The notes beneath the pieces are model-generated. The model was not told where the DNA came from and did no database searches. It saw only the letters and a list, made by a program, of their open reading frames with translations. Made by a program: the position numbers and the translations under genes. This document shows positions 1,292-51,132 of a DNA stretch of 64,000 bases, in pieces; position 1 is the stretch's first letter; each line of letters opens with the position of its first letter. Origin of the DNA: Candidatus Binatia bacterium (GTDB taxonomy: Bacteria; Desulfobacterota; Binatia; UBA9968; CAXXLF01); contig CAXXLF010000002.1 in assembly GCA_963664015.2 (NCBI GenBank), positions 1,601,008 to 1,665,007 on the forward strand, given 5' to 3'.

Positions 1292-1625
1292 ATCAATTCA
1301 CGCTCCTACGGGCTTTTATTCTCGAATCCGCAATTTATGATTTACCAAGGATCATTCCAGCGTCGGCTCAAACACCCCGTAGGAGCACCCCTGGTAGATT
1401 GGCGGATGGGGCGACCCCGAGGGCCCTAAAGACCAACGTATTTTTAACGACTTATGCTGCTTCAGACGTAGGGGAACTCAGCTCCAGGAGGGCCGCAACG
1501 TCCGCTGTTCCCCGAAACTACCAATAATTGACATAAGTGTGCCCGGACCGGGGGCGGTCTCAGACCTTCCGGGCCTTGCCCCCTCGGGTTCCAACTAACC
1601 TAACGGGCGTATGGTGGTGCCTAAC

Positions 1626-2067
1626 GCAAAGAGCAGAGCGCATAGCGCTCGGATTGTTAGTCCTTAGTTTTCAGGTAAGAAGTGTCGAGTGTTCAGTCAT
1701 CAGTATTTGGATCCCGATTCTTTAAACGCAGATGAGAAATCACCGAAGAGACGCTCTTCGATAAACTCAGGGTGGTGAGCGGTTCGAATCGGTCGAACCA
1801 CAGAGTACGCTGAGGGAAGAATCTTTGCCCAATCGGGAGACAGCGATTGGGCAGAGGGCCTCGTCTTTAAAGAGACAATGCTTTTTGTTTGCCGTCGTCT
1901 CCCGACAAACAAAAACCAATTCTCTGTGTACTCTGCGTCTCTGCGGTGAGATATCCGAATCCTCATCTGCGTTAATCAGCGAAAAATCTGCGGTTAATTC
2001 CCCTCTTAACTCTCTTGCTGCCCACTGCATACCGCCTACTGTCTTATTCCCGCGCCTTGCGCTTTGC
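1626..2067 (+). repeat. MITE-like intergenic repeat, copy A (same orientation as copy C), carrying a copy-specific insert of about 190 bp
   Basis: The left part (gcaaagagcagagcgcatagcgctcggatt...gatcccgattcttt) and right part (catctgcgttaatcagcgaaaaatctgcggttaat...ccgcctactgtcttatt...tgcgctttgc) align module by module with copy C at 38877-39169. The middle, about 1744-1935, is unique to this copy. Confidence 0.7.
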
Positions 2068-2116
2068 AGCTTCGCATTGACACCGCAGTTCGACATCAGA
2101 TATGTTCAGCCCCCAG

Positions 2117-3770: not shown

Positions 3771-4136
3771 CTACTTGAGATGATTGCTGACCAGCTTGGT
3801 CATCTCAAACATGCTGACCTGCTTCTTGCCGCGAAAGACGGCTCTTAGGTTGTCGTCAGCATTGATCATGGTTCTCTTCTTTTTATCCTGTAGCCCTTTG
3901 CGCTTGATGTACTGCCAGAGCTTCTTGGTTACCTGCGTCCTAGGCATAGGCGTGGAACCAATCACGGCGGCGAGCATCGCGCTGGGCTTCACCGGTCTCA
4001 TGAAGGCCGCATTGGGTTTGCGTTTCTTCTTAGTAGCACGCTTTTTCTTTACGACGCGCTTTTTTTTTACGACGCGCTTTTTCGCCTTAGCCTTCTTTAC
4101 CACACGCTTCTTCGCTTTCTTTTTCTTTGCTGCCAT
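3771..4136 (-). CDS. SWIB/MDM2-domain protein with a histone-H1-like Lys-rich repetitive N-terminus
   Basis: 121 aa. The N-terminal roughly 45 residues are KK/KRVVKK repeats. The C-terminal part (PSAMLAAVIGSTPMPRTQVTKKLWQYIKRKGLQD...INADDNLRAVF) is SWIB-like. GAGGGAGGG lies just upstream of the ATG. Confidence 0.8.
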   Translation of the reverse strand: MAAKKKKAKKRVVKKAKAKKRVVKKKRVVKKKRATKKKRKPNAAFMRPVKPSAMLAAVIGSTPMPRTQVTKKLWQYIKRKGLQDKKKRTMINADDNLRAVFRGKKQVSMFEMTKLVSNHLK

Positions 4137-4253
4137 TTTCCCTCCCTCGGTAAAAGTATTCTTAAAATGAATTTTACATCAAATAGACTACTTTTGACCA
4201 GCTTTTTTTTGAAAAATTGCAACTTTCAGGGGGAACGCTCTAGAGGCACTTCT

Positions 4254-5120: not shown

Positions 5121-6219
5121 ATGGCTCAAGCCGAATACCAATTGCTCACTCAAACAGATGCAGGGACACCCTGCGGGGAACTCATGCGGCGCTACTGGCA
5201 GCCTGCGGCTCTCTCAAGGGAACTGAACCCCCTTGCCCGTACGGCTGCTAGGAGATGATCTCGTCCTTTTTCGCGACGACGAGGGACGACCCGGCTTATT
5301 GGGTCTTCACTGTGCGCACCGAGGGGCCGACCTGAGTTACGGCCGGGTCGAGAACGGTGGATTGAGGTGCATCTATCACACCTGGCTTTATGACATCAAA
5401 GGTCGTTGCCTGGATCAACCGGGAGAGCCCCGTGGAGGAGAACACCGGAACTCCATCCAACACACGGCCTACCCCTGTCAGGAGTCTGGAGGGGTTATCT
5501 TCGCCTATTTGGGTCCAGGTGAGCCGCCGTGCCTTCCCGCATATGAATTGCTACAGGTACCCGACGATCATCGGTTGATTATTAAGGTCTTCCAGGATTG
5601 TAACTATTTGCAGGTGAACGAAGGGGGTATCGATCCGGTGCACACATCGTATCTACACCGTATCGCACAAGACGGGGATGAGGATCAGTATGTGGGAGTC
5701 CGGGGGACGGATACTTCGTTTTTGACTCTGTGGGAAAAAGACGCAGCTCCCCAAATTGAAGTAGAAATTACAGATGTCGGCCTGCGAATTCTTACCGTCC
5801 GGGACGCAGGAGACAACAAACATTACCTTCGATTCACTAATTTTGTTTACCCCAATTTAAGCGCCTTTCCCGCGCAGACGGGGGCCGAGGGGTACAACGT
5901 CAATTGGCATGTCCCCATGGACGATACACGTCACTGGAAATATATGTTCGTTTTCAGTCGAGAGAGGCCCCTTAGAAAAGAGATCATTAGCAGGGAACGC
6001 GCCGAGGACCGCACCAGGTCCAACCGGTACCGCCAAGACAGGGAATCCATGAAAACCAAATTCTACAGTGGCATGGGAAGGGATGTACCCAGTCAGGACA
6101 CCTGCATTATCGAGGGGCAAGGCCCCGTACCAAACCGTGAGCAGGAACACCTGGTCTCCTCGGATAAGGCCATCATCGCTGAGCGAAAACTTTTGCTCAA
6201 GGCCCTCCAGGACGTTTAG
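5121..6219 (+). pseudogene. Rieske [2Fe-2S] non-heme-iron oxygenase alpha subunit (phthalate-family type), frameshifted at a C5 run
   Basis: GGAGG then ATG 5121 gives MAQAEYQLLTQTDAGTPCGELMRRYWQPAALSRELNP, the typical N-terminus. The rest (PVRLLGDDLVLFRD...CAHRG..x17..CIYHTW Rieske motif, DPVHTSYLH iron motif) lies in the +1 frame from 5233. The junction is the C5 run 5228-5232. Confidence 0.8.
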
Positions 6220-18972: not shown

Positions 18973-19059
18973 GAAACGATCAACAGTGGAAAGCCAGGTG
19001 TCAAATTTTAACCAAAATTATTTGAAATGTTCCCGTGGAATTTCGGATTACCAATTGGG

Positions 19060-19275
19060 AAGAAGATGACTCGCGTAAATACGCAAAGGACGCCAAGTTT
19101 GGAGCAATCATGCTAACCGTAGATTTTCGCAGACGAAAATTGGTAAAGTGCATAGCGTTCGGATCTCTCTTTCAGCCCTTTATCGATCTTCAATCCTCTA
19201 TTTTCGATTCTCATCCCTCCCCACTCAACCCTCAGCGCTCGTTACTCAGTACTGAGTCCGGTAGGCGTCTTGGCG
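19060..19275 (+). repeat. diverged or composite copy (D) of the intergenic repeat family
   Basis: It shares the modules ctaaccgtagattttcgcag and gtgcatagcgttcggat...ctttcag...tcagtactgagtccgg with copies B and C, and contains the 14-bp palindrome ACTCAGTACTGAGT. Confidence 0.35.
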
Positions 19276-19448
19276 CGAAATTCTTTGTTAAAGTCGTTCT
19301 GTTGAACCTTCAATAGGTAAGAATAAGGTTATCCGCGTCCACGAGACACTATTAAGGTATTGTTGAATTGCATTTTGAACTGAATTAGGCTCTGTATGCA
19401 GGGATTCTCATTTTGTAATCCATAGGCGAAACGTACCTCAACGGCTTC

Positions 19449-29412: not shown

Positions 29413-30276
29413 ATGCCTCTTGTGAATGCACTGGCTGCGAGCCATGCACCCAACATCCTTATGGAACCGGGCGCGGAGTGGGAGGACTTCATGAAGCTCC
29501 ACTACCGTATGGCTCCGCATACTTCGGGGTCTGGACCCTCTCTGGAAGTCCAAAAGAAGCTCCGGGCCGATGCAGAAAAGGCTTTTAGCGTGCTTCAGGC
29601 AGAGTTAATCGCCTCCCGTCCGGATGCGCTGATTGTCGTAGCCAATGACCAGTTTGTTAATTTTTTCTACAACAACATTCCAACCTTTTATGTGACCTTA
29701 GCGGATGAAGTGGAAGGGCAATTCACTCGGCACCATTTCCATTACCAAAACCACAAAGAGCTGGGCCAAGCCATCCTCAAGTCTGGGCTGGAAAAGGGTA
29801 TTGACCTATCCTTTGGTCGCTACGTGGAATTGCAACACACACAGGTTGTCCCACTCTATTTTCTCCTGCCTGAACCCACAATTCCAATCCTTCCCATCTA
29901 TGTGAATACATGGGTAAGCCCACTGCCCACGCCCCTTCGTTGCTACCGCTTAGGAGAAGTCATTCGGGAGGTTGCCGAGGAGCGTGGGGAACGAGTAGCC
30001 ATCATGGCTACCGGTGGCCTATCACACTTTCCCGGTTCCCCGAAGATCGGGGAGATCGATACGGAATTCGACCATAAGCTTTTACAAATCATACGTGATG
30101 GCCAGGGCAGAACCCTAACGGCGCACTCTTCTGATTACTTCTTTCAGGCGGGAAACTCCGAGTTCCTTAACTGGATGGTTGTTTTGGGAGTCGTCGGGGA
30201 AACCAAGGCTTCCGCGACTTTTTACATGCCGGACCAAGTGGCAACAGGTTGGGGGTTCGCCAGCTGGAGGCTATGA
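29413..30276 (+). CDS. class III extradiol ring-cleavage dioxygenase, LigB family
   Basis: 287 aa with a LigB-like layout (N-terminal ASHAPN, ...MATGGLSHFPG...). Confidence 0.7.
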   Translation: MPLVNALAASHAPNILMEPGAEWEDFMKLHYRMAPHTSGSGPSLEVQKKLRADAEKAFSVLQAELIASRPDALIVVANDQFVNFFYNNIPTFYVTLADEVEGQFTRHHFHYQNHKELGQAILKSGLEKGIDLSFGRYVELQHTQVVPLYFLLPEPTIPILPIYVNTWVSPLPTPLRCYRLGEVIREVAEERGERVAIMATGGLSHFPGSPKIGEIDTEFDHKLLQIIRDGQGRTLTAHSSDYFFQAGNSEFLNWMVVLGVVGETKASATFYMPDQVATGWGFASWRL

Positions 30277-30370
30277 GGAACCAAATCGTTATTCGTCAAT
30301 AGTCAATCGTGAGTTTGGAGTTGAGCTTTCGGACTCATGACCATCGACCCCATAACTAACAACCTCGTCG

Positions 30371-30625: not shown

Positions 30626-30674
30626 GAAGAGAGACAGAGATAGAGACAGGGAAACGAAAAGAGCAAGACACAGA

Positions 30675-30885
30675 GGGCAAAGCCCAATGCGCAATGAGAC
30701 TACTGACCACTGAACTACAGGACCACAAAATAGCAAGCAGCATACAGAAAGAGAGCCGAATCCGAATACTGAGAACCGTTTACTGAAAACTGATAATTAA
30801 ACAATAAGCTCAATCCGGAGCTGAACGCTGACAGCTGACGGCTGAGAGCTAAACTCCGGGGGCTAAGCGCTTTACGCTATGCAGA
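30675..30885 (-). repeat. intergenic repeat family, copy E (short derivative, same orientation as B)
   Basis: It shares ccgaatccgaatactgagaacc..tttactgaaaactgata and gctgaacgctgacagctgacggctgagagcta with copy B. It is preceded by a purine-rich tract at 30627-30675. Confidence 0.5.
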
Positions 30886-33537: not shown

Positions 33538-33544
33538 AACGAAG

Positions 33545-33804
33545 CCGCATAGCGCAGAGAGCAAAGCGTTAAAAATACTAACCGCAGATTTTCGCCGATT
33601 AACACGGATCTTTTCTGGCCGGTCCGGCCAGATCGAAACCCCTCTTATCTGCGAGTATCTGCGTAAAGCTGCGGTTGAAGAATCCGGATTCGAATACTGT
33701 AAACTGGAGACTGAAAACTAAATACTTAACACTTCTTAGCTGAAGGCTGACAGCTGATGGCTATTAGTCAGACATTAAGTGATTGACGGTGCGCCTTTCG
33801 CGGC
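33545..33804 (-). repeat. MITE-like intergenic repeat, copy B (inverted relative to copy C)
   Basis: The reverse complement aligns with 38900-39085 at roughly 85% identity by eye (cagctgtcagc.ttcagctaagaagtgtt ... attcg.atccggattctt..accgca..tttacgcagata...gcagataagag ... atccg.gttaatcggcgaaaatctgcggtta). The internal palindrome CTGGCCGG-T-CCGGCCAG lies at 33614-33630. Confidence 0.75.
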
Positions 33805-38263: not shown

Positions 38264-38851
38264 ATGTCGATTCATTCCGAAAGGTGTCAGGAATGTAAGG
38301 CTCGGGTATACGAGCTGCTTACGGAGCTCTACGGCGCCTGTGAGGTAGGCCTCGCCTTCCCGTGGCCCTCGAGCCCTGAAGCCTATGGAGGAAATGCAGC
38401 CGGAGATATCCTCCAGGTCGTCTTCAAGGGCCTTGGAAGACTGAGGGGTTATCACGACTTTATCAAGGCGCCCCAGATGCCGCCCTGCGATTTTTATTGT
38501 CCCCGGAGGAGCTTCATTGTGGAGTTCGACGAGAGTCAGCATTTTACCCGAGCCCGTCGAGTCACGCTGGAGTACTACCGCCCAGAAGTACCTGTGGGCT
38601 TCCCGGTGCCCCAATGGATCGCCCTCTGCGAGAGTATTGCAGCAGTCGATGACGATCCACCGGACCGGGACGAAAGGCGCGCTTGGTATGATACGTTGAG
38701 AGATCTTTTACCCTGCATCCACGGCTTTAAGCCAACCGTACGTGTTTACTCGGAGGCCTTCCGCTGGTGCACGCTGCAAGCGAATTCCAAAAACGACCTG
38801 GCAACGTTCCGATCTTTACTCACGGGCTTACCCGAACCAGCGGCGCCGTAG
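38264..38851 (+). CDS. hypothetical protein with an N-terminal CxxC and a nuclease-like D...E.DE.QH block
   Basis: 195 aa with CQEC...PPCDFYCPRRSFIVEFDESQHF. I cannot name a family. Confidence 0.45.
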   Translation: MSIHSERCQECKARVYELLTELYGACEVGLAFPWPSSPEAYGGNAAGDILQVVFKGLGRLRGYHDFIKAPQMPPCDFYCPRRSFIVEFDESQHFTRARRVTLEYYRPEVPVGFPVPQWIALCESIAAVDDDPPDRDERRAWYDTLRDLLPCIHGFKPTVRVYSEAFRWCTLQANSKNDLATFRSLLTGLPEPAAP

Positions 38852-38876
38852 CGTCGACTCCTGAGCTGGCGCTACG

Positions 38877-39169
38877 GCGGCAAAGCGCATGGCGTTCGGA
38901 TTTTAGCTTTCAGCTGTCAGCGTTCAGCTAAGAAGTGTTGAGCGTTAAGTAATCAGTTCTCAGCATTCGGATCCGGATTCTTTCACCGCAAATTTACGCA
39001 GATATTAGCAGATAAGAGAGGCTGCTATCTGACCGGACCGGTCAGAAAACATCCGCGTTAATCGGCGAAAATCTGCGGTTAATTGCTCTAAGGGTTTTCC
39101 TCTTAGCGCTTAGCTTTCTTACCGCCTACTGCTTGCTGCCGACTGTCTTACTGATTTGCGCTTTGCCGC
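38877..39169 (+). repeat. MITE-like intergenic repeat, copy C (reference copy) with perfect 13-bp terminal inverted repeats
   Basis: GCGGCAAAGCGCA at 38877-38889 is the exact reverse complement of TGCGCTTTGCCGC at 39157-39169. The internal palindrome CTGACCGG-A-CCGGTCAG lies at 39029-39045. The element contains no ORF. Confidence 0.8.
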
Positions 39170-39223
39170 TTCGTTCCCCCCTGTCTTTCTGAACTCTGAT
39201 CTCTGCCGGTCCGCGCTTTGCAT

Positions 39224-42356: not shown

Positions 42357-42478
42357 AGGGTCGACAGGGATGCATCTTGAAAACGATGCCTTTGACCTCG
42401 ATTGGACCAATAGGGATCAGCCTTTGACGTTCCTCGACTGTACGTTTCATCCTTGCTAGTGCTGATTTATTGGACCGA

Positions 42479-43390
42479 TTAATGTCGGCTGGGGGTTAAC
42501 ACCTTCAGCTTGGTGTTAATAAACTGCTTGTGGGAAAAATCCAGCATGTAGGCGATCTTCCGAACCTCTTCGATCTCTTCATGGGAAGTCTTACCCTCTG
42601 CATTCGTCATAGCAAATATCCCTTCGACCAATAGCTGGCGTTCTGGCATGCTCATGGTCGCTTTAACCTCCTGAACCAGACGGTGGAGGTCTACCCGTTG
42701 TTCGACCGTTTCCAAGGCAATGTGGGAGACGGCTTCGACCATAGGTTGAGTGGCTCCCCAGATCTCATGGAGCACTTTATGCATGAACGCCTTTTCTTGA
42801 GGCAAGAATTCCTCGTCCACATAACCCACTCGACCCAATAGGGCGGCACTTAACGTCAGTTTTTTCAGTTTCGCCGGGGTTCCCTCTTTTTCAAGTCGCT
42901 CTGATCCCAGACGACGACGCAACCTAAAGAGAACGCGGTTACTAATAAAGTCATGGAGATCAGCCTCGCGGCCACTGTCGCCTGGGTCATGACTTGAGCC
43001 ACCGATCCTAAGAAGACTCTTTAATCCATCTAGATAAAAAGACGCACCTTTGCTCTCTGACACAACTCCCTTTAGATCCCGCAACCACTCTTTTTCTTTT
43101 GGGGACAAGTTGTCATCCGCTTGGAGAAGATCCTCCACGGCCTTAACGAGCATCTCCCTTTGACGTGGCCGACGGGCTCGTTGAAGGAAGCGTTGGATAA
43201 TCCGTTTCATCTCCTCCACCCCCACCTTCTCCACTAGATACATCTCCACCTGAGCCCAGTCGTCCCCGCTCAGCTTAAAGCGCCGCACAAACTGCTTGAT
43301 GAAGTTGATTTCCCCCTGGGTCACCTCTTCATCGGCCCAGGCAACACAGGCGAGGACCTTTAAAAGCTCTACTTCTGTCGGAGAAGCCAT
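42479..43390 (-). CDS. TerB-like (tellurite-resistance TerB/DjlA-N fold) repeat protein
   Basis: 303 aa with two copies of a VLA.VAWADEEV...E..FI / ...IFAMTNAEGKTSHEEIEEV pattern. Confidence 0.45.
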   Translation of the reverse strand: MASPTEVELLKVLACVAWADEEVTQGEINFIKQFVRRFKLSGDDWAQVEMYLVEKVGVEEMKRIIQRFLQRARRPRQREMLVKAVEDLLQADDNLSPKEKEWLRDLKGVVSESKGASFYLDGLKSLLRIGGSSHDPGDSGREADLHDFISNRVLFRLRRRLGSERLEKEGTPAKLKKLTLSAALLGRVGYVDEEFLPQEKAFMHKVLHEIWGATQPMVEAVSHIALETVEQRVDLHRLVQEVKATMSMPERQLLVEGIFAMTNAEGKTSHEEIEEVRKIAYMLDFSHKQFINTKLKVLTPSRH

Positions 43391-48896: not shown

Positions 48897-49089
48897 CCCA
48901 TCTCATCTATTGGCCGTAAACTCATTTAGTGTTATGAATAATTGACTAGAATCCAGGATATAGAGTTCAGAAGACAGATTTTCCCAAGAACAACCCGACG
49001 ATACACGTTTCAAGAGGCATGGGTTTTTATTCTCGATTCCGACACATCAAAGTTGAAATCTGTCTTCCCACTGAATCCCTCGAATCGCT

Positions 49090-50496: not shown

Positions 50497-50688
50497 GTCA
50501 GCCGAGCAAAGAAAGACAGTAAGCAGTTGGCAGTGAGCAGCCAGAAACCCGGAGCTGATAAGCTAGGTGCTCATAGCTAAACTTCCTCAGTCCTGTCTTA
50601 CTGCTACCAGCTTGCTGTCTTTTTTAATCTGTTGCCCTGCTGCATACTGCCTACTGTAAGCTGTCTTACTGTTTTGCGAAAGGAGTCA
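50497..50688. repeat. intergenic repeat family, copy F (two tail modules in inverted orientation, forming a long imperfect palindrome)
   Basis: The left arm gcaaagaaagacagtaagcagttggcagtgagcagcc and right arm ctgcatactgcctactgtaagctgtcttactgttttgcg resemble the ...ccgcctactgcttgctgccgactgtcttactgatttgcg tail of copy C in both orientations. Confidence 0.5.
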
Positions 50689-50691
50689 TCC

Positions 50692-51132
50692 ATGTCCATC
50701 AAAGAAATCGACCCCCAGGCGGCTTTCGAGATGCTCAAGTCAGGAAGCGGCTGTGTTTATATCGACGTTCGCACGGTACCCGAGTTCGAAGCCGGTCATC
50801 CGGAAGGCGCGGTCAATATCCCCATTGCCCTGCCCGATCCCGCCCGGGGCATGGCAATGAATGATCAATTCACTCAAGTGGTAGAAGCCCACTACCCCAA
50901 GGAGATGACGATCCTCGTCGGGTGCCAGGCGGGCCCTCGTTCGACCGCAGCGGCACGTCTACTCGAACAGACAGGATTCCAAGATGTCTCAAACGTCCGG
51001 GGAGGGTTTGGCGGCATGCGTGATCCTTCGGGGCAGATCATTGCCCCCGGTTGGTCCAGCCTGGGACTACCCGTGAGCCAGGACAACGGAGAGAACGTGA
51101 GTTACGCGTCCCTGACCGCCAAGGCAAAGTGA
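50692..51132 (+). CDS. rhodanese-domain sulfurtransferase
   Basis: ATG 50692. YIDVRT..EF..GH..GA.NIP and the active-site loop CQAGPRS are present. Confidence 0.8.
   Translation: MSIKEIDPQAAFEMLKSGSGCVYIDVRTVPEFEAGHPEGAVNIPIALPDPARGMAMNDQFTQVVEAHYPKEMTILVGCQAGPRSTAAARLLEQTGFQDVSNVRGGFGGMRDPSGQIIAPGWSSLGLPVSQDNGENVSYASLTAKAK

Follow-up and report, generated by a model that had tools for sequence, protein, structure and literature searches.

What kind of DNA recurs between the genes of this Candidatus Binatia genome, and did it come to lie there by moving? The window, by which we mean the whole 64-kb stretch analysed here and which is part of a 3.36-Mb contig, holds six sites (elements A to F) that an initial annotation had grouped as a family of modular, MITE-like intergenic repeats with element C as its reference copy. 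The 7-nt periodicity of these sites, their lineage-wide distribution and the link of their central module to GxxExxY gene cassettes were not in that annotation. To our knowledge, the non-coding DNA of Binatia, an abundant and uncultured lineage of soil and sediment, has had no prior study, and our search for published work on Binatia repeats found none.

A repeat family with a seven-nucleotide period

Searching the window with element C by sensitive BLAST bore out the proposed family for most of its members. Element B matched C in inverted orientation (79% over 214 nt, E=8.6e-46). The left arm of A (71% over 115 nt, E=1.1e-12), the right arm of A (68% over 130 nt, E=2.1e-11) and element E (68% over 101 nt, E=2.2e-8) also matched, with a 230-nt block (1734-1963) sitting between the two C-matching arms of A. 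Elements F (37 nt, E=0.003) and D (36 nt, E=0.008) matched weakly and are marginal when judged against C alone; they are family members on other grounds, namely the matches of the modules of D in relatives (77-91% over 57-102 nt) and the 7-nt periodicity of both.

This periodicity is the hallmark of the family. All six elements have a lag-7 base match of 0.33-0.43 per copy vs 0.25 expected, and pooled autocorrelation of the six copies gave z=11.2 at lag 7, 8.9 at lag 14 and 5.0 at lag 21, with coding DNA being flat in the same base autocorrelation. A blind search for 7/14-nt periodicity (z>3.5), slid along the full 64 kb, recovered A, B, C, D, E and F, together with a small array (30232-30370) and one further weak match (48929-49030). 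The six sites thus form a real repeat family, and the periodicity and the blind recovery together identify the previously noted modules as arrays of degenerate heptamer words. Phased listing of these words revealed several families (TCAGCNN, NNNNCTG or CAGNNNN, GCNNNGC and ATCYTCN) with 3-5 fixed positions each, and TRF found just two short arrays. The central part of B and C is different, being made of arms of CGCAGAT-type decamers with a period of about 10 nt that end in GTTAATCGGCGAAAATCTGCGGTTAAT. Because words of 7 or 10 letters are repeated in opposite directions, the stretches can fold into nested hairpins.

All six sites fall between called genes, and the description of them as intergenic and non-coding held up, with tblastn using the GxxExxY and four-helix-bundle cassette proteins discussed below finding no such gene or fragment in the window. 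The reported lack of a transposase was likewise confirmed by a Pfam scan of 39 window ORFs, in which no transposase, integrase or RAYT was detected; the same three were missing from the precomputed Pfam annotation of the 25 called genes of a 20.6-kb locus (L126), and the Pfam matches of both gene sets were to housekeeping families only. The window contains no tRNA or tmRNA.

Since the same word arrays return in the opposite orientation on the far side, the arrays of a full copy such as C lie concentrically in inverted pairs, with GC words outside, CAG/CTG words in the middle and CGCAGAT decamers inside, followed by the tip hairpin. The parts of C are as follows.

38877-39173, + strand: element C, a tip hairpin enclosed by three inverted word arrays, one within another
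38877-38889, + strand: outer left arm GCGGCAAAGCGCA, GCAAAGC-type words, pairing with 39157-39169
38894-38931, + strand: TCAGC heptamer array (gttcgga ttttagc tttcagc tgtcagc gttcagc), TRF period 7, 4.1 copies
38937-38968, + strand: CAGT/CAGC word array, pairing in the minimum-energy fold with the CTG array at 39117-39153
38984-39013, + strand: left decamer arm CACCGCAAATTTACGCAGATATTAGCAGAT, CGCAGAT words with a period of about 10 nt
39029-39045, + strand: tip hairpin CTGACCGG-A-CCGGTCAG
39051-39083, + strand: right decamer arm ATCCGCGTTAATCGGCGAAAATCTGCGGTTAAT, with the most conserved 27-nt core at 39056-39082
39117-39153, + strand: CTG heptamer array (tcttacc gcctact gcttgct gccgact gtc...)
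39157-39173, + strand: outer right arm TGCGCTTTGCCGC (39157-39169) and conserved CTTCG

The left decamer arm is self-complementary to 39051-39083 (95 nt at 74% by BLAST), and as RNA the element folds better than its shuffled versions on the + strand (z=-4.2) and on the - strand (z=-3.7). In B, the tip hairpin reads CTGGCCGG-A-CCGGCCAG, and comparison of seven relatives revealed compensatory changes at two of its pairs. The other elements draw on the same words in different arrangements.

33538-33804, - strand: element B, inverted, abutting the stop codon of a NUDIX gene
33578-33609, 33615-33631 and 33647-33677, - strand: right arm, tip and left arm of B
33680-33691, 33691-33767 and 33544-33568, - strand: palindrome GAATCCGGATTC, word arrays and GC words of B
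1622-2074, + strand: element A, with its head at 1626-1654 and word arrays at 1654-1708
1724-1739, 1965-1998 and 2017-2073, + strand: left-arm remnant, right arm, and CTG plus GC words of A
1734-1963, + strand: block of A, at the place taken in C by part of the left arm and the tip hairpin
1740-1754 and 1935-1949: bounds TCACCGAAGAGACGC and GCGTCTCTGCGGTGA of the A block, which has hairpins at 1825-1855 and 1880-1917
19009-19263, + strand: upstream part of element D, with TC-rich heptamer arrays at 19180-19263
19113-19134 and 19143-19164, + strand: solitary left-arm-like CTAACCGTAGATTTTCGCAGAC and head GTAAAGTGCATAGCGTTCGGAT of D
30630-30885, - strand: element E, between LigA-like and SDR genes and antisense to both
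30819-30849 and 30860-30884, - strand: GCTG array and head words of E
30695-30749 and 30630-30649, - strand: CAG/CTG words and 6-nt AGAGAC array of E
50497-50688, + strand: element F, its CAG array (50514-50542) facing a CTG array (50637-50671)
30283-30322, + strand: small heptamer array (aaatcgt tattcgt caatagt caatcgt) between the LigB and LigA genes

The pieces of the A block all recur in four related loci (L003, L031, L037 and L068) at 75-97% identity, some of them inverted, and D matches another (L005) at 87% over 100 nt. The tail of F reaches into AAAGGAG, the ribosome-binding site of the gene that follows (ATG at 50692). The small heptamer array at 30283-30322 was absent from the earlier list of copies and came to light in the blind periodicity scan.

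Distribution of the modules and a proposed link to small gene cassettes

A protein encoded in the flanks has homologues that bear the name Candidatus Binatia. The core GTTAATCGGCGAAAATCTGCGGTTAAT had five matches in two other Candidatus Binatia MAGs, where the strict 25-nt motif has just 1-4 copies, a low number that counts against the cassette interpretation given below, and a slightly degenerate form was present in at least 120 metagenome stretches. Among 2.9 million viral contigs the core motif was not found, so carriage by phages is not supported. When the whole window was compared by BLAST with 125 related loci, the matches were almost confined to the element regions and the flanks did not align. 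Every module recurred in these loci at 72-100% identity beside unrelated genes, in varied combinations and in either orientation. Full-length C was found in none of the 125, its modules recurring separately with changing order and orientation, which argues for a mosaic vocabulary and not a single element with defined ends. The modules are spread lineage-wide in Binatia and the central module extends beyond Binatia across several phyla. Published work matching the words of the elements consisted of unrelated primers, and a possible resemblance of the core motif to CtrA-like TTAA-N7-TTAA sites and to uptake sequences was considered and set aside.

Alignment shows that the centre of B and C is homologous to the arms of a GxxExxY gene cassette. 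One related locus (L031) carries, in order, a left arm (TTAACCGCAGATTTACGCAGAT), a hairpin, a GxxExxY pseudogene, a second hairpin and a right arm, the disrupted gene belonging to a PD-(D/E)XK nuclease family (TIGR04256/PF13366). The left decamer arm of C is homologous to the left arm of this cassette, the right arm of the cassette is 86-89% identical to C and B, and the locus shares several modules with the window. ORF-less relatives retain both arms and one or both of the small hairpins, with C and B being of the one-hairpin type. PF13366 has been described as a family without known function that was transferred between divisions multiple times (PMC3424549).

The association extends to GxxExxY genes of other lineages. 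We examined seven such genes, from L031, WOR-3, a "Deltaproteobacteria" MAG, Brocadiia, Omnitrophica, a "Halobacteriota" MAG and locus L152, and arrays of CRCRGAT-type 10-nt words (GACACGGATT, AACGCAGATT) were present in the flanks of all seven. Inverted arms directly bracket the ORF in L031, L137, L138 and L152, and those of L152 abut its start and stop codons. The inverted-repeat scores of the seven flanks ranged from 10 to 28 vs a control mean of 7.6 (sd 2.0, n=187), five of them lying above the control 95th percentile (10). Seen from the side of the motif, a GxxExxY gene accompanied it in 2 of about 125 motif-bearing loci. Our literature search found no published description of these flanks or of those of the four-helix-bundle gene described next.

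Heptamer arrays may have a cassette partner of their own, the link coming from one orthologous locus (L129, L141-L150). There, in Binatia relatives, a gene of the four-helix-bundle family PF05635, to which the ORFs of 23S rRNA intervening sequences (IVS) belong, is bracketed by GGCAATA and TATTGCC heptamer arrays. The number of words in the downstream array varies among strains in 7-nt steps, being 2, 3 or 4 in the ten samples compared, and a G-to-C change in one upstream word is accompanied by a complementary change in its partner word. In the IVS of 23S rRNA, a short ORF is enclosed by a stem that arises from the pairing of complementary ends. This ORF, for example in Coxiella, encodes S23p (four-helix bundle, PF05635) and is decaying there, and the stem is cut by RNase III (PMC4990558). 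The Binatia locus resembles an IVS in having a PF05635 gene between inverted heptamer arrays, whereas the window elements lie outside rRNA, have no ORF and have arms made of tandem word arrays.

With moderate confidence, we interpret the elements as BIME/STRR-like mosaics of ORF-less hairpin cassettes that are related to small gene cassettes. Each module is built from a degenerate word of 7 nt (10 nt in the centre) that is repeated 2-6 times, and the elements would be ORF-less relatives of cassettes that carry a short gene between inverted word arrays. The gene would be a GxxExxY PD-(D/E)XK nuclease where the arms are decamers and, at the one locus known to us, a 23S-rRNA-IVS-type four-helix-bundle gene where they are heptamers. 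In Binatia, the units appear to have spread between genes, often into or beside one another, with arrays gaining and losing 7-nt units. We infer that the units are or once were mobile, perhaps through nuclease-initiated repair or copying, perhaps through an unknown enzyme acting in trans. The ORF-less forms may derive from ORF-bearing ones, as opposed to genes having been inserted into existing hairpins, and it might instead be that GxxExxY genes targeted hairpins already in place. In transcripts, the arms could pair up as long stems and serve in processing or stability, by analogy with the action of RNase III on rRNA IVS.

A further-reaching reading, which we put forward tentatively, is that a class of selfish cassettes with word-array arms, present in multiple phyla and so far undescribed, has the elements as its ORF-less majority, its shells having been multiplied, nested and co-opted. 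In such a cassette, a tiny gene for a GxxExxY nuclease or a four-helix-bundle IVS-type protein would sit between inverted arrays of 7- or 10-nt words. Arms made of tandem words can zip in any register and would thus tolerate the gain and loss of units, and zipping in any register would allow a cassette to reside within an operon, where it would be insulated as a stem that can be excised. The empty shells in Binatia would then have multiplied, nested into mosaics and in places taken on new roles, one being that of a portable promoter or leader module.

If the favoured interpretation as mosaics of ORF-less cassettes is true, part of the intergenic space of Binatia draws on a limited set of word arrays that turn over between species and strains. 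Such arrays would generate spurious ORF calls, would probably break short-read assemblies and may carry promoter-like and hairpin signals beside housekeeping genes. Two very large protein families whose function is unknown, GxxExxY and the four-helix bundle, would through this link gain a context open to experiment, and a connection would arise among rRNA IVS, heptamer repeats (STRR, TAACTGA) and REP-like mosaics, subjects that have been handled separately until now.

Site turnover and possible selection on the words

Occupancy differs at the orthologous site of C, which is empty in one relative and filled by another mosaic in a second. The first (L127, 71% amino-acid ortholog, same four-gene synteny) has a 38-nt spacer vs 372 nt with C in the window. 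The second (L128, 77% amino-acid ortholog) carries a different mosaic, the head of which provides the last codons and the stop of the gene. These relatives are too diverged for an insertion boundary to be drawn to the nucleotide.

This turnover bears on the most serious rival, in which the elements would be immobile selected signals (phased binding-site arrays, promoters, or 3' stabilising or processing hairpins) that recur because they share a regulatory vocabulary. Species with proteins just 55-79% identical share an almost unchanged 27-nt core, and modules of such high identity in different species could owe it to function and not to mobility. ATCTGCG words, phased directly at 10 bp, also resemble tandem binding sites for a protein. 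Strong inverted partners lay within 190 nt of 17 of 117 distinct motif copies, and the mismatches of the arms lie between words and are not compensated, with G-U and A-C combinations numbering 18 vs 12 beside 42 others and no G-U enrichment on either strand. The few inverted partners and the lack of a G-U excess imply that selection may act on words rather than on pairing, the words themselves seeming to be at least part of its target. Against immobile signals stand the orthologous site that is empty or otherwise filled in relatives and a module content that is highly variable from copy to copy. Gene context, assigned by a crude longest-ORF rule, was convergent for 33 core motifs in the fetched loci, tandem for 34 (17 per orientation) and divergent for 11, so that the core motif is biased to gene 3' ends with no orientation bias. 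Sigma-70 promoters and intrinsic terminators were not enriched in or around the elements, the hairpins of which have no T-runs. Taken together, we consider it unlikely that immobile signals account for the elements.

One module does behave differently in being strongly oriented with respect to genes, which speaks for a regulatory role.

19269-19325, + strand: promoter- or leader-like portable module CTTGGCGCGAAA..TTGTTAAAGTCGTTCTGTTGAAC..GGTAAGAAT, upstream of an M1 peptidase gene (start 19449)

Its core, AAGTCGTTCTGTTGAA, had 27 matches with at most 3 mismatches in the window and the loci, some of them probably spurious, and in 22 of the 27 an ORF on the same strand starts 20-240 nt downstream (4 of the 27 have one in the opposite direction). 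The core motif of C lies just upstream of this module in L002, L004, L094 and L095. From its placement, the module is probably a portable promoter or leader. A sigma-70 consensus search of the window copy gave no match, and a sigma-54 reading of CTTGGCGCGAAA... was rejected on account of a poor fit in spacing and in the -12 GC.

The ends of element C and known repeat systems

Classical MITEs are internally deleted copies of DDE-type insertion sequences that a transposase moves in trans by recognising their terminal inverted repeats (TIRs), and element C had been proposed as a reference MITE defined by 13-bp TIRs. Its ends are as they had been reported, with GCGGCAAAGCGCA at 38877-38889 exactly complementing TGCGCTTTGCCGC at 39157-39169. 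Perfect 13-bp inverted repeats within 400 nt, however, number one in the window vs a mean of 0.55 in dinucleotide shuffles, so that the repeat, taken alone, is within chance expectation. It is built of GCAAAGC/GCTTTGC heptamer words that are seen elsewhere in either orientation, and what had been called a TIR is the outermost pair of words in the inverted arrays and not a transposase-type terminus. The ends of B, D, E and F differ from those of C, and A has a looser end pair (GCAAAG..GCGCA / TGCGCTTTGC). Elements A, B and C do share the ending GC-N-GCTTCG, with the conserved CTTCG beyond the right end counting as element sequence.

Correia, ERIC/RU and BOX elements are bacterial MITEs, BOX being modular as well. 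The window elements are like them in being short, non-coding, inverted-repeat hairpins whose occupancy differs between relatives and some of whose modules are placed where neighbouring genes could be affected, and a Porphyromonas MITE has been described as having an internal minisatellite (PMC4596501). In other lineages, moreover, the CGCAGAT unit forms compact 75-110-bp hairpins with arms of about 30 bp ending in TTAA (L012, L028, L036 and L118), which speaks for a MITE. The likeness does not extend to the termini nor, as far as the window and the surroundings of the elements go, to the machinery. Target-site duplications, which the initial annotation had suggested looking for, were not seen, no direct repeat flanking A, B or C; neither the window nor the surroundings of the elements yielded a transposase; and the one ORF-bearing relative of the central module (L031) encodes a small PD-(D/E)XK nuclease, as a pseudogene. 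The modules also recombine freely and nest, with the missing full-length C among the 125 loci speaking in the same direction. In one locus (L066), inverted core motifs lie 2.1 kb apart and were considered as the ends of an autonomous element; the idea was rejected since they enclose housekeeping ORFs, which we take by eye to be MoaC-like and thioredoxin-reductase-like, and no transposase. Of the proposed non-autonomous, MITE-like nature, what stands is the difference in occupancy at the orthologous site, and what falls is the expectation of common termini, duplications and full-length copies elsewhere. With no shared termini or duplications the elements do not qualify as MITEs in the classical sense, and we regard the MITE reading as improbable.

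Extragenic palindromes that are spread by a REP-associated tyrosine transposase (RAYT) and assembled into mosaics (REP/BIME) offer a second known system, and resemblance to such structural repeats had been noted and is genuine in several respects. In its workings the family comes nearest to REP/BIME elements and to modular MITEs. Like the REP, BIME and REPIN elements of Proteobacteria (PMC2817692; PMC3116915), the window elements are extragenic, non-coding, hairpin-forming mosaics with modules in both orientations and a preference for gene 3' ends, which the convergent, tandem and divergent counts of the core motif (33:34:11) bear out. They differ in their units, which are degenerate arrays of 7- or 10-nt words and not single 20-40-nt palindromes bearing a GTAG or CGTC tag (PMC3733652). 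A palindrome adjacent to C (38843-38879) is the sole carrier of GTAG, and the word arrays have neither tag. REPs are moreover described as species-specific (PMC2817692), whereas the central module is common to several phyla, and no RAYT-like ORF was found in 131 loci by a crude HUH/Y-motif scan, a weak test. Having no tagged palindromes and no RAYT found beside them, the elements do not qualify as a REP system, and we hold such an origin to be improbable.

Structured non-coding RNA genes, for example protein-sponging sRNAs with repeated motifs, are very improbable: C and B do fold better than shuffles (z -2.5 to -4.2) and the tip hairpin has its two compensatory pairs, but both strands fold equally with no G-U asymmetry between them, orientation relative to genes is random, consistent promoters or terminators are missing, length and module content differ from copy to copy, and Rfam gave no match for the window at the gathering score, chance-level matches alone for C in E-value mode, no motif-related match in 20 related loci and none in 5 short loci from other lineages.

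Closest to the words themselves are the tandem heptamer repeats of cyanobacteria (STRR). A similar set, the TAACTGA direct repeats, occurs in Beggiatoaceae, Cyanobacteria and Bacteroidetes, nearly all of them as direct repeats and mostly just upstream of start codons (PMC4679880). The window elements are not strict STRR, as their words are degenerate and inverted and not identical direct heptamers, several word families coexist, and the inverted pairs are able to form hairpins. With both sets they share a 7-nt period, an intergenic position and a patchy occurrence across phyla that suggests horizontal spread.

Coding end and arm words of the repeats at related loci

At L128, a related locus that carries a different mosaic at the site where the window holds element C, the 77% (amino-acid) ortholog of the 195-aa protein ends (..GCG GCA AAG CGC TAA) within the repeat head GCGGCAAAGCGC (L128 930-975); as its last codons and stop lie inside that head, the C-terminus is therefore supplied by the element. 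The word arrays themselves, tandem degenerate words of 7 or 10 nt often set in inverted pairs able to form hairpins, take a particular form in AT-rich lineages (L119 2120-2860; L151 350-1050), with CACAGAT words in the left arm and ATCAGTG words in the right, such that a central A-A mismatch is expected in every word pair. Both arms at these two loci also carry CAG on the same strand, and a pure hairpin model leaves the mismatches and the same-strand CAG unexplained.

Sequences flanking element A and other short motifs of the window

Directly 3' of the tail of element A (1622-2074, plus strand) lies the region's top sigma-70-like site, TTGACA-18-TATGTT (2077-2106, 10/12 matches), which ends 11 nt 5' of the ATG at 2117 that opens a polysaccharide-deacetylase-like gene (2117-2752). 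This gene contains an in-frame TAG at 2189-2191, around which the translation reads ..HFPVE*WSQKDKDYLQNYRREYGVKIGAWRLLD.. without a change of frame, and which could reflect a pseudogene, an assembly error or read-through. Further along the window, 18- and 30-nt tandem repeats (CGCTTTTTCTTTACGACG) at 4039-4128 occupy the overlap of two ORFs, 3771-4136 (minus strand) and 3784-4170 (plus strand), neither of which had a Pfam match. In the 3'-terminal part of TerB, a 37-nt patch (42462-42500; TTGGACCGATTAATGTCGGCTGGGGGTTAAC) is common to four related loci (L026, L027, L052 and L124) at 79-95%, and is a further conserved short motif of the lineage with no relation to the word arrays.

Neighbours of the repeats at related loci

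At L031 (5340-5526), where a GxxExxY nuclease pseudogene lies between arms homologous to the centre of elements B and C, the segment interrupting that pseudogene (MYYTYVIQS..GYTGMTADLRTR) resembles by eye a frameshifted GIY-YIG nuclease gene; a Pfam search with the 89-aa ORF returned no match. An apparent dnaA C-terminus, also recognized by eye, stands directly 5' of the whole cluster. In a more distant Binatia relative (L129 10660-10860), different hairpin repeats, made of CGCAGCAAGCTGCGGGG units plus GGGGCGCACCTGTGTGTGCGCCC..GGGCGGACACGCAGGTCCGCCCC, follow the orthologous gene on its 3' side, and these we take to be widespread in soil metagenomes. A Binatia MAG (L003) carries a group II intron RNA (5409-5661; Rfam RF02005, 59 bits) about 500 nt 3' of a repeat cluster. 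In a non-Binatia lineage (L016 1-3340), a tRNA gene array with 11 or more members adjoins a triple ATCTGCGTTA word array.
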